DNA of 63,998 nucleotides, filler included, from Malassezia furfur (Eukaryota), in NCBI GenBank assembly GCA_052055015.1. It is 4 parts of 4 records of this genome, joined end to end, with 100 filler letters (N's around TTAATTAATTAA, not from the genome) between each part and the next. Parts side by side here need not be neighbours in the genome. Positions count along the whole stretch, not along the records: positions 17,409 to 34,688 come from JBQJIT010000228.1; 3 more parts are not named here. One strand, given 5' to 3'. Below are positions 17,262-31,380 of this stretch, in pieces (position 1 is the first letter of the stretch; every line of letters starts with the position of its first letter). A program made the translations under genes and the position numbers. The notes under the pieces are model-generated. The model had not been told where the DNA came from, ran no database searches, and saw only the letters and a program-made list of their open reading frames with translations.

Positions 17262-17308
17262 GCGAATCGCACGGTCAGCGCACACGCCTGGGCATCGACC
17301 CATGCGGA

Positions 17309-17408
17309 NNNNNNNNNNNNNNNNNNNNNNNNNNNNNNNNNNNNNNNNNNNNTTAATTAATTAANNNNNNNNNNNNNNNNNNNNNNNNNNNNNNNNNNNN
17401 NNNNNNNN
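17309..17408. other. Artificial contig-joining spacer
   Basis: N44-TTAATTAATTAA-N44, with stops in all six frames. Confidence 0.98.
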
Positions 17409-18939: not shown

Positions 18940-19514
18940 TTACTTCTGCTGAGCAGTCCACACGTTGCGGATGACTGTAGGGTTAGTACATGTTCGGGCG
19001 GCGCAACTGCGCACGGCGGTGTCGTTGGGTTTGTTGCAGCAGTCTGACGCTCATAGACTCATAAGATAGGAGTCTGCGAGCTCTTAATCCGCTGAACTTT
19101 GATTTGCGCTCCATAATAATGGAATCCTTCGCCTGGCATAGACAGATGGAGTGTTACCTCCGTGCCAGGCGCAGACTGTCTGGAGCAAAGGGGAGGCCGC
19201 AACCAACCCAAAAACATCGCGCGCGCGCAGTCAAAGATACGTACAGCCCTTCTCCTGGCAGATGCGGTTCAGCGAGTCGTCGCTCTCACCCTGGTGGCGG
19301 ATCGAGCCAGCGATGGGGATGTTGGTCGTCTGGCCAGGGATGATCTTGCCGTTCTCGTCAACGTCCGCGATGGCGATCTGGACCGAGGCGTGGTCCTTGG
19401 CCTCAATGAGACGGCCAGTGGCAGCGCACTTGCGGGGGACGTAAAGGTCAACAAGCTCTCCCTGAACGGTCAGTCACGGCGAACACGCGTCACACATACG
19501 TGGATGTTCTCCAT
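18940..19514 (-). CDS. RPS21: 40S ribosomal protein S21 (eS21), introns 19462-19499 and 18975-19244
   Basis: Spliced [34 protein letters not shown]...GESDDSLNRICQEKGFIRNVWTAQQK*. Confidence 0.95.
19029..19190 (-). ncRNA. Intronic box H/ACA snoRNA in RPS21 intron 2
   Basis: Hairpin - H box (AAATCA) - hairpin - ACA+3 nt; both pockets complementary to LSU rRNA GGAAUCUGACUGUCUAAU. Confidence 0.85.
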
Positions 19515-19956: not shown

Positions 19957-22100
19957 TTAGCAGCCACCTCCGCAGCCATATCGGCACCCGTAGCACAGCA
20001 CAGGCACGTTGCTATTTGTCAGAACCAGCCCTGCGATACTCGCAAAGCCCTCGCCCAACACAAATCCAGAGGCCACAACAATCACCAGGAGGGTTTTGAG
20101 GTCCTGTTGTGTGTTGCAGCGCTGTGCATAGCGCGTATATCCGGCAGCCGCCAGACCGCCTAGCAGCCGTGCGAGCGAAAAGTTGGGCGTGTTCATCATC
20201 CCAGTTGCAAACGCAATGCCACTCGGGAAGGCGAGTGCGCACTGCTCCCACAAAGGTGCCGGCTCCTTTCGGCGCCGTTTGGACCGCAAGCGGCGCAGAT
20301 GGCGAGAGCGCGCAACGGCATGCATAATGCCTGACACGCCAAATAGAACCCCAAAAAGCAGCATAAACGATGGCACAGTTTCAGGCAGGGTCCCATTGTT
20401 GATCAGTCGCGCGAGGTTCAGCCAGATCGCCGACGTTGGTGCGGGGAATTGGGGGCCAGGAATGGGGTACGTCGAGCGATACACCGTGTAGCCAAACACG
20501 GTGAAGCCTATGCCCAGCAGACTCCCGAGCAGTTGGCCTCGGAACTGGTTCCAGGGCGCGACGCCGACTAGATGACCCGTTTTGTAGTCTTGCATCAGCT
20601 CACCAGCCTGCATAGCGCCAGACTCGGTGATAGCACCGGCAATCAGATTCGCCACCACATTGCCGGGCTGCACCACACCGTAAAGCAGCTGGCTGATTTT
20701 GGCGACACCGCTCACGGGGTTTAGATCGGTCTCTCCCAGTGCGCGTACCGCCAGCACGGAAAAAAGGCTTGCAAGAATAAAGGCAAGCAGAGTTGCCCAT
20801 GGAGCAATCGACGTGCCTGCAGCACCTGCGACTGCCGCTACACCCACGATGCTGGAGATGATGAGGCCACCAACAACCCAACTCATGGGCGTCTGACGCT
20901 CCGGAGGCTCATCGTCCTCGTCTGGAAGCGTGATTTCTGAAAGCGAGTCTTCTGCCCTCCCTGATGAGCTTGCGGGCGGGGCGAGTCCGTCCGGTCCGTC
21001 CGGCAAAAGTCCTTCTTGCTCGTGAGAAGGCAATGCGATGCGATGTTCGGCGCTTTTGCCCCAGTCCAAAAAGTCTTTGGTACCTGAGGAAAAGATGAGC
21101 GCCACCACACCAATGATGCTTTCTGCGCACATCACGGCCAACGAGATCCACAAGATCCAGCCACGCCCACCTTCGTCGGCGTCCAATGGCTCACTTGGCG
21201 CCCATCCAAATGTGTGCGCCATGGGCGAGAGAATCGCCCAGCCGACCACAGCCCCAAGCACCATATGAATGGAGGTGGGAAGACCCATGATCATACCTTG
21301 TCCAATGTAGCTAAACGACGGGGTAAACCACCACCCCCAACGTGTCAGAGAATGCCCCCGTGGAGCAAACACATCAAATATAGGCAGGGCATACACCACG
21401 GGGACCACAAACGAGAGCAACGTCACGAAGCAGGACACGCCCAGCGAGACAAGCAAAACATTCCAGCTCGTCTGAACGTCCTGTCGCGATGCATGCGAAG
21501 GTACTTCGGTGGCCACATCCTCGTCATCTGCGGCTCGTGCATTTTGTGTTTCGACTGGGTCGCGCTTCAGTGGAGTCCGATGAAGCAGAGAGACCAGCTG
21601 CGCGGTTGCTGATCCACTTGGAAACGGCAGACGTTCATGCAAGATCATGGGCTCGCGCAGCGGGCTTGCAAAGAATATGCCGGCACTGCGTAAGAAGATA
21701 AGACGTACAAGGCCAGACCAAATGTCCAGAGCCAAATGCCCGTCTGAGAAAAAATCATGGGGCCCACGCCATCCTGCTTTTCATCAAGCATTCCCAATGC
21801 AGGAAGCACACCGATGGCACCGGACACGAGTGGCAAAGAGCCAATCGAACTGGCGACGGTCTGAATAACCACATTTTCTTTTAGTGTGAGTGGCTTGCTC
21901 AAGATCACGAATCGCTTGCCACCCAGCTGAACCGAAGTTGGTATCAGCTTGAACAGGGCAAACCCCAACAGACTGCCCTGTAAGGTCATCGTACTGATCC
22001 ATCCAGACTGGAGACCAAGATACAGGTTGGTGAAGGTAATCAGAGCGCCGACGACGATGCCCATGCCAATCGCACGCGGCTGGATGAGTTTGTGGAACAT
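19957..22100 (-). CDS. OPT-family (YSL-like clade) oligopeptide/metal-chelate transporter, intron 21686-21708
   Basis: NLYLGLQSGW, ENVVIQT, LPFPSGSATA, GETDLNPVSG, LMQDYKTGHL; many TM helices. Confidence 0.9.
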
Positions 22101-31282: not shown

Positions 31283-31380
31283 TTCCCAATCCGGGAGTCG
31301 AACCCGGGTCTTGTCGGCGCTTCACAGACCAAGTCCGATCTTATGAGAGCGACATATACTAACCGTTGTACTAACTAGGA
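31283..31380 (-). tRNA. tRNA-Glu(CTC) with about 26-nt intron
   Basis: Acceptor TCCTAGT/ATTGGGA, D arm, anticodon stem TGTCG/CGACA with CT-CTC-A, intron after position 37, T arm CCGGG-TTCGACT-CCCGG. Confidence 0.93.

Follow-up and report, generated by a model that had tools for sequence, protein, structure and literature searches.

On its minus strand, the window (the whole 63,998-nt stretch of Malassezia furfur DNA that was analysed) holds RPS21, the gene for ribosomal protein S21e, which has three exons as read from the sequence (Table 1). The translation of exon 2 (19461-19246) matched positions 6-76 of the 79 in the Pfam profile PF01249 Ribosomal_S21e with an E-value of 4.7e-33. GC content in the window is 57-68% and the splice signals are of the fungal type; in intron 2 a branch-site-like TACTAAC (18988-18982) lies 7 nt upstream of the CAG acceptor. 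An earlier note on this DNA had drawn attention to a 270-nt intron and placed a snoRNA inside it at 19029..19190. Our reading bears this out: the intron is intron 2 of the S21e gene (19244-18975, minus strand), and it consists of a structured core with about 50 nt of plain intron sequence on either side. Its length is explained by the snoRNA gene that it contains. The neighbour of RPS21 (19957-21735, minus strand) resembles an OPT-family oligopeptide transporter by protein-atlas feature matches (score 0.95); PF03169 occurs in all members (100%) of the best-matching atlas clusters, which are broad. A run of N at about 17308-17352 was read as an assembly gap; it appears as 15 X in the ORF translations that cross it, and its coordinates were computed from the ORF ends.

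Table 1 Elements of the RPS21 gene and of the predicted snoRNA in its second intron (positions in the window)
Feature	Positions	Strand	Sequence and basis
RPS21 (S21e) exon 1	19500..19514	-	ATG at 19514-19512; frame runs on into exon 2; sequence reading
RPS21 intron 1, 38 nt	19462..19499	-	GTATGT...CAG; inferred from splice signals and reading frame
RPS21 exon 2	19245..19461	-	Pfam PF01249 Ribosomal_S21e match
RPS21 intron 2, 270 nt, snoRNA host	18975..19244	-	GTACGT donor, CAG acceptor; sequence reading
RPS21 exon 3	18940..18974	-	stop TAA at 18942-18940; reads ..IRNVWTAQQK stop
Box H/ACA snoRNA, probable snR3 counterpart	19029..19190	-	Rfam RF01434 full-model alignment and constrained fold
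Hairpin 1	19107..19187	-	lower stem UGCUCCA (19187-19181)/UGGAGCG (19113-19107), plus upper stem
Hairpin 1 5' guide strand GACAGU	19175..19180	-	with the preceding A pairs rRNA ACUGUCU, 3' of U2129; target scan
Hairpin 1 3' guide strand GAUUCC	19121..19126	-	pairs rRNA GGAAUC, 5' of U2129; target scan
Extra unpaired AUUAUUA, 3' guide to lower stem of hairpin 1	19114..19120	-	makes the guide-to-H-box distance 21 nt
H box AAAUCA (ANANNA)	19100..19105	-	sequence and constrained fold
Hairpin 2	19037..19094	-	lower stem CAGCGG (19094-19089)/CUGCUG (19042-19037); upper stem GCUCG../..UGAGC
Hairpin 2 5' guide strand AUUAAGA	19082..19088	-	pairs UCUUAA 3' of U2264 (6 bp) and UCU 3' of U2133
Hairpin 2 3' guide strand GUCAGA	19043..19048	-	pairs UCUGAC 5' of U2133 (6 bp) and UGAC 5' of U2264
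ACA box	19032..19034	-	14 nt from GUCAGA; sequence and constrained fold

The structured core of intron 2 has the layout of a box H/ACA snoRNA. Unconstrained and constrained folds alike gave the hairpin-hinge-hairpin-tail arrangement of this class. The hinge holds an H box of the form ANANNA, and an ACA triplet lies close to the 3' end; when the guide strands and boxes were held single-stranded, the order was hairpin, H box (AAAUCA), hairpin, ACA. The minimum free energy was -59.6 kcal/mol compared to a mean of -42.9 for shuffled sequences (z-score -4.06), and none of 200 shuffles was equally stable. Each of the elements listed in the earlier note is present in the sequence. For hairpin 1 these are the stems GCTCCA/TGGAGC and CGCCTGGCA/TGCCAGGCG, the pocket strands GACAGT and GATTCC, and the H box AAATCA; for hairpin 2 they are the stems CAGC../..GCTG, GCTC/GAGC and AGACTC/GAGTCT, the pocket strands (G)ATTAAGA and GTCAGA, and the ACA. 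The two distances it had given were also reproduced: the 3' guide of hairpin 1 is separated from the H box by 21 nt, and GTCAGA from the ACA by 14 nt, the latter within the 14-16 nt discussed below. The 5' end of the RNA is uncertain within 19186-19195. Mature H/ACA RNAs are expected to end 3 nt past the ACA, and the 3' end was set at that position.

We then asked what Rfam makes of the locus, a search that the earlier note had proposed. At E ≤ 1 the whole window gave just two matches, snR3 and one tRNA. The snR3 match was to S_pombe_snR3 (RF01434); it scored 35.1 bits and aligned model positions 1-167 end to end with minus-strand positions 19195-19030, and the E-value was 2.1e-5 in a 401-base region and 0.0034 in the whole window. 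Homology to known snR3 in sequence and structure can therefore be detected over the full length of the model. In gathering mode no match was reported for the whole window, the 35.1 bits comparing with a curated cut-off of 100 bits, and we therefore assign the RNA to the broader snR3 family of fungi rather than to the narrow RF01434 model. The S. pombe snR3 consensus has in common with the M. furfur sequence AGACAGU, UUAAGA and GUCAGA, the lower stem of hairpin 1 (GCUC.A/UG.AGC) and the 14-nt distance from GUCAGA to the box. The proposal that the intron holds a box H/ACA snoRNA is supported by this match together with the architecture and the fold z-score.

The targets of snR3 are known from yeast, and they provide a specific expectation for the two pockets. 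According to the accessible text of PMC5824354, hairpin 1 guides 25S-2129 while hairpin 2 guides both 25S-2264 and 25S-2133, and all of these are conserved across Dikarya. To look for the corresponding sites, we used large-subunit (LSU) rRNA fragments of other eukaryotes as targets, fetched from a prokaryote genome collection with a 19-base rRNA motif. The motif had been quoted in the earlier note as part of fungal LSU rRNA and it does exist there: of the 16 loci that it retrieved, 14 were eukaryote LSU rRNA fragments and 2 were chance matches. The 14 fragments (L001-L006, L008-L011 and L013-L016) come from assemblies whose labels say bacteria or bacterial MAG, and they represent contamination. 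Contiguous pairs were scored on both sides of the unpaired U-N. For hairpin 1 the best site was at motif offset 6, equivalent to 2129, with 6 + 7 = 13 bp in all four LSU fragments scanned and a runner-up of at most 8.5. For hairpin 2 the two best sites on L002, the sole scanned fragment that is uninterrupted through both, were offset 141 (2264) with 4 + 6 = 10 bp and offset 10 (2133) with 6 + 3 = 9 bp; on the other three fragments the best site was 2133. The offsets of the sites are 4 and 135 apart, the same as between 2129, 2133 and 2264.

When the guides were shuffled, hairpin 1 scores of at least 13 arose in 1 of 2000 trials, whereas hairpin 2 reached at least 10 in 25 of 2000 and 9 in 76 of 2000. 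Taken singly, the predicted fits of hairpin 2 are modest, and their weight lies in their coincidence with the two published sites of snR3 hairpin 2. The portion of PMC7991803 available asks for 8 bp or more between guide and target, with no fewer than 3 on either side of the unpaired U-N, and the fits at 2129, 2264 and 2133 all reach this minimum. The M. furfur RNA therefore shows the complementarity that characterizes the snR3 family, hairpin 1 to 25S-2129 and hairpin 2 to 25S-2133 and 25S-2264. The earlier note had claimed a single RNA with pockets for 2129 and 2133, and this part stands, with 13 and 9 bp respectively; the third site, 25S-2264, had been missed even though its fit of 10 bp is the better of the two for hairpin 2. 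The bulge that the note required in the second pocket is needed at 2133 but not at 2264, in the region of helix 69, where TTAAGA pairs without one. The bulge at 2133 is a consequence of one hairpin 2 pocket serving two sites. In three of the fragments, L005:3501-3750, L006:3501-3750 and L016 (minus strand, past the motif), the rRNA stops after ..ACTATGACTC and unrelated sequence follows. This break falls a base or two beyond the 2264-equivalent and may mark an rDNA intron inserted in helix 69.

Two pockets that address two neighbouring uridines had led to the suggestion of a novel fusion, in which one RNA does the jobs of two yeast snoRNAs, snR11 and snR3. The pockets do address 2129 and 2133, but the premise of two separate yeast guides is wrong. 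In the table of PMC5699541, as far as it was available, snR3 is listed for both 2129 and 2133 and snR11 for 2416; PMC5824354, within its accessible text, has the snR3 family carrying these targets across Dikarya; and the S. pombe snR3 model already holds both sets of guides. We regard a fusion as scarcely credible. Since snR3 guides 2129 and 2133 in yeast, the use of a single RNA for the two sites is already known and holds across Dikarya, and the M. furfur RNA is a member of a known family with known targets that resides in an intron of a ribosomal-protein gene. As a double guide it is of no new type.

We next examined whether RNAs with the same layout occur elsewhere. A pattern with fixed AGACAGT, TTAAGA, GTCAGA, ANA and ACA spacing was scanned against metagenomes and hit at least 118 loci (119 hits), mostly by chance. 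Because the guide motifs were fixed by the pattern, their presence in the relatives is not independent evidence. Among the matches listed, an architecture filter kept 6 loci, of which 5 were accepted: L020, L044 and L062, which form one group, L103 and L132. The sixth, L025, was set aside as AT-rich low-complexity sequence. L069, which had the sole exact GATTCC among the 119 hits listed, is AT-rich and without convincing stems, and it failed both the architecture filter and, at E ≤ 1, a covariance model built from the M. furfur RNA (R1). The R1 model added L023, which is identical to L048 and L108, and L038 (E 0.18-0.27), all with the full layout on inspection. In total 9 of the 118 loci, again among the matches listed, share the layout, and they fall into four sequence groups.

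The M. furfur RNA and these snR3-like loci share the order of elements, the guide strands, the H box and an ACA 14 nt from GUCAGA; they differ in the 3' guide of hairpin 1, which is GAUUUC, GAUUCA or GAUUUG in the metagenome loci compared to GAUUCC in M. furfur. Three features are independent of the search pattern. A GAUU[CU]N 3' guide is correctly placed in each locus, and an ANANNA lies exactly 15 nt downstream of it in each. Third, the stems differ in sequence yet remain complementary, the lower stems of hairpin 1 being UGCUCCA/UGGAGCG in the window, and UGCGUC/GAUGCA, CGCACU/AGUGCG, GGCACC/GGUGCC and CUGCGCC/GGCGCGG in the four groups. For hairpin 2, a MAFFT alignment of 6 sequences, 3 of them near-identical, was evaluated with the structure taken from the window. 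The ten pairs beside the pocket were 94.8% paired, compared to 36-48% when the strands were slid, and 7 of the 10 change on both sides, a count that none of 500 shuffles reached. RNAalifold recovered hairpin 2 from this alignment unaided, with 20 predicted pairs, 11 of which had compensatory changes. Hairpin 1 was not recovered by RNAalifold on the same alignment because MAFFT had misaligned it, and the covariation of hairpin 1 therefore rests on constrained folds of the individual sequences.

Sequence models supported the relatives unevenly. Rfam matched only L103 at E ≤ 1 among the 6 candidate loci (25.7 bits, E 0.12). With filters off, R1 scored L103 at 23.6 bits (E 0.00016), L132 at 16.7 bits (E 0.011), L023 and L038 at 13.4 bits (E 0.083) and the L020 group at 8-9 bits (E 1.3-2.3). 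As a single-sequence covariance model R1 is insensitive, and with its default filters it misses L020, L044, L062, L103 and L132; without filters its alignments of the relatives were incomplete and it gave noise hits in the window, and no pairs were counted on these alignments (A3/A4). In L132 (298-490, minus strand) the hinge contains an extra well-paired hairpin between the H box and hairpin 2.

The surroundings of the relatives were searched for the host gene. In tblastn at E ≤ 1, where some loci had 1200 nt of flanking sequence and the rest about 300 nt, there were 0 hits to an S21e exon near the 118 listed loci, indicating that RPS21 is not a host common to these relatives. The snR3-like gene in L062 (1187-1372, plus strand) lies between ORFs and outside any RPS21 intron; the nearest ORF (L062:1-297, minus strand) is on the opposite strand and encodes a cyclin C-terminal domain (E 3.5e-10).

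These findings also bear on whether the intron yields an RNA at all. The hairpins and the rRNA complementarity in a long intron could be fortuitous, or the relic of a dead gene, with no stable RNA produced; the Rfam score under the curated threshold and the non-canonical spacing of hairpin 1 count in favor of this. However, a full-length covariance-model match (E 0.0034), three best-fit sites that are the three known targets of snR3, two intact boxes with the 14-nt spacing in hairpin 2, a fold z-score of -4.06 and compensatory stems in the relatives all argue against it, and we consider it highly improbable. We favor instead the reading that a counterpart of snR3, a fungal box H/ACA snoRNA, is encoded in intron 2 of the S21e gene, and that the RNA is very probably real. 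We put the probability of this reading at roughly 0.85, on the strength of the sequence itself, its architecture, the homology signal, the complementarity to rRNA, the conservation of stems and the placement in sense within a ribosomal-protein gene.

One feature of this snR3 counterpart departs from the rule. The 3' guide of hairpin 1 (GAUUCC, 19126-19121) lies 21 nt from the H box, outside the range of 14-16 nt. Counted in the same way, all 8 relatives scored have a distance of 15 nt, and the S. pombe snR3 consensus and hairpin 2 of the M. furfur RNA both have 14. The excess is accounted for by an extra AUUAUU, without which the spacing would be 15, and the extra bases resemble a short expansion of an AUU repeat. 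On reading the sequence, no other ANANNA was found 14-16 nt from the hairpin 1 pocket; AGCGCA, at 16 nt, was tried as an alternative H box and rejected, as it is not an ANANNA and overlaps the lower stem. The conserved distance of 14-16 nt from pocket to box is described, in the available parts of PMC6800473, PMC7991803 and PMC5778458, as a ruler by which the uridine to be modified is positioned in the active site of Cbf5, and one of these reviews gives 15-16 nt for eukaryotes. Given this ruler, the 21-nt spacing implies that hairpin 1 may be impaired, or else that the spacing is tolerated with bases looped out. It weakens the case for hairpin 1 being an active guide and leaves the identity of the RNA as an H/ACA snoRNA untouched.

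The spacing can accordingly be read in a second way, which we take seriously while rating it at somewhat less than even odds. The RNA would be the same snR3 counterpart, with hairpin 1 a decayed pocket put out of register by AUUAUU; only hairpin 2 would guide (2133 and 2264), and U2129 would be unmodified or served by another guide. The contrast between 21 nt in M. furfur and 15 nt in all 8 scored relatives or 14 nt in the S. pombe consensus points in this direction, as do the positioning role ascribed to the 14-16 nt distance in those same partly available sources and the repeat-like look of the inserted bases. On the other hand, hairpin 1 retains two intact guide strands that match the rRNA perfectly (6 + 7 bp), which argues for continued selection, and the bases left unpaired at the bottom of the pocket might be looped out. 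A narrower scenario, that snR3 moved into the RPS21 intron within this lineage and that its first pocket now works or fails with a 21-nt spacing to the H box, strikes us as unlikely.

Under the favored reading of an intron-encoded snR3 counterpart, we infer the following course for expression, processing and modification. The snoRNA would be made as part of the RPS21 transcript, in the sense orientation, and freed once the intron has been spliced out and debranched; exonucleases would then trim it back to ends protected by Cbf5-Nop10-Nhp2-Gar1. Hairpin 2, with its canonical 14-nt spacing to the ACA, would bind two stretches of 25S rRNA with one pocket and guide the conversion to pseudouridine of the uridines that correspond to yeast U2133 and to U2264, the latter in the helix 69 region. 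As in yeast snR3, hairpin 1 has complementarity to the sequence around U2129, here of 13 bp, and its activity there may have been weakened or lost through AUUAUU.

The closest known system is snR3 of S. cerevisiae and S. pombe (AJ632000; RF01434, clan CL00040; HACA_3 in the accessible text of PMC5824354), which is likewise a two-hairpin box H/ACA guide. The two have in common a hairpin 1 directed at 25S-2129 and one hairpin 2 pocket for both 25S-2133 and 25S-2264, as described for yeast in the same partial source. They differ in the distance from the hairpin 1 pocket to the H box, 21 nt in M. furfur compared to 14 in the S. pombe snR3 consensus. A second difference concerns genomic setting. 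Yeast snR3 genes are free-standing, whereas the M. furfur RNA lies inside an RPS21 intron. In this respect it resembles the intron-encoded H/ACA snoRNAs of ribosomal-protein and housekeeping genes, being in sense orientation, one to its intron and in no need of a promoter of its own, and it differs in nothing of kind from intron-encoded box H/ACA RNAs in general. Such snoRNAs in ribosomal-protein gene introns have been studied before, judging from the portions of the literature available to us; within the same portions, our search found no paper that ties snR3 to an RPS21 intron.

The value of the finding lies mainly in annotation, as this is a gene that Rfam misses at its curated thresholds. 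It adds an intronic instance of snR3 hosted by a ribosomal-protein gene, other lineages having been seen without an adjacent RPS21, and it leaves the understanding of how H/ACA guides work unchanged. The 21-nt spacing of hairpin 1 nevertheless offers a small natural experiment on the H/ACA distance ruler. If hairpin 1 still pseudouridylates the 2129-equivalent, it would be a natural case of an H/ACA RNP that tolerates six looped-out bases in the 3' strand of its pocket, well outside the 14-16 nt ruler. If the 2129-equivalent is unmodified, the RNA would instead record a datable loss of one of three guide functions by a short repeat expansion, with the guide strands still intact.

The other Rfam match in the window (31283-31380, minus strand) was to a tRNA gene of the nuclear type that contains an intron and has a T run after it. 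Absent from the Rfam gathering-mode listing and from the ARAGORN calls, it scored 47.7 bits in E-value mode against a tRNA cut-off of 29.
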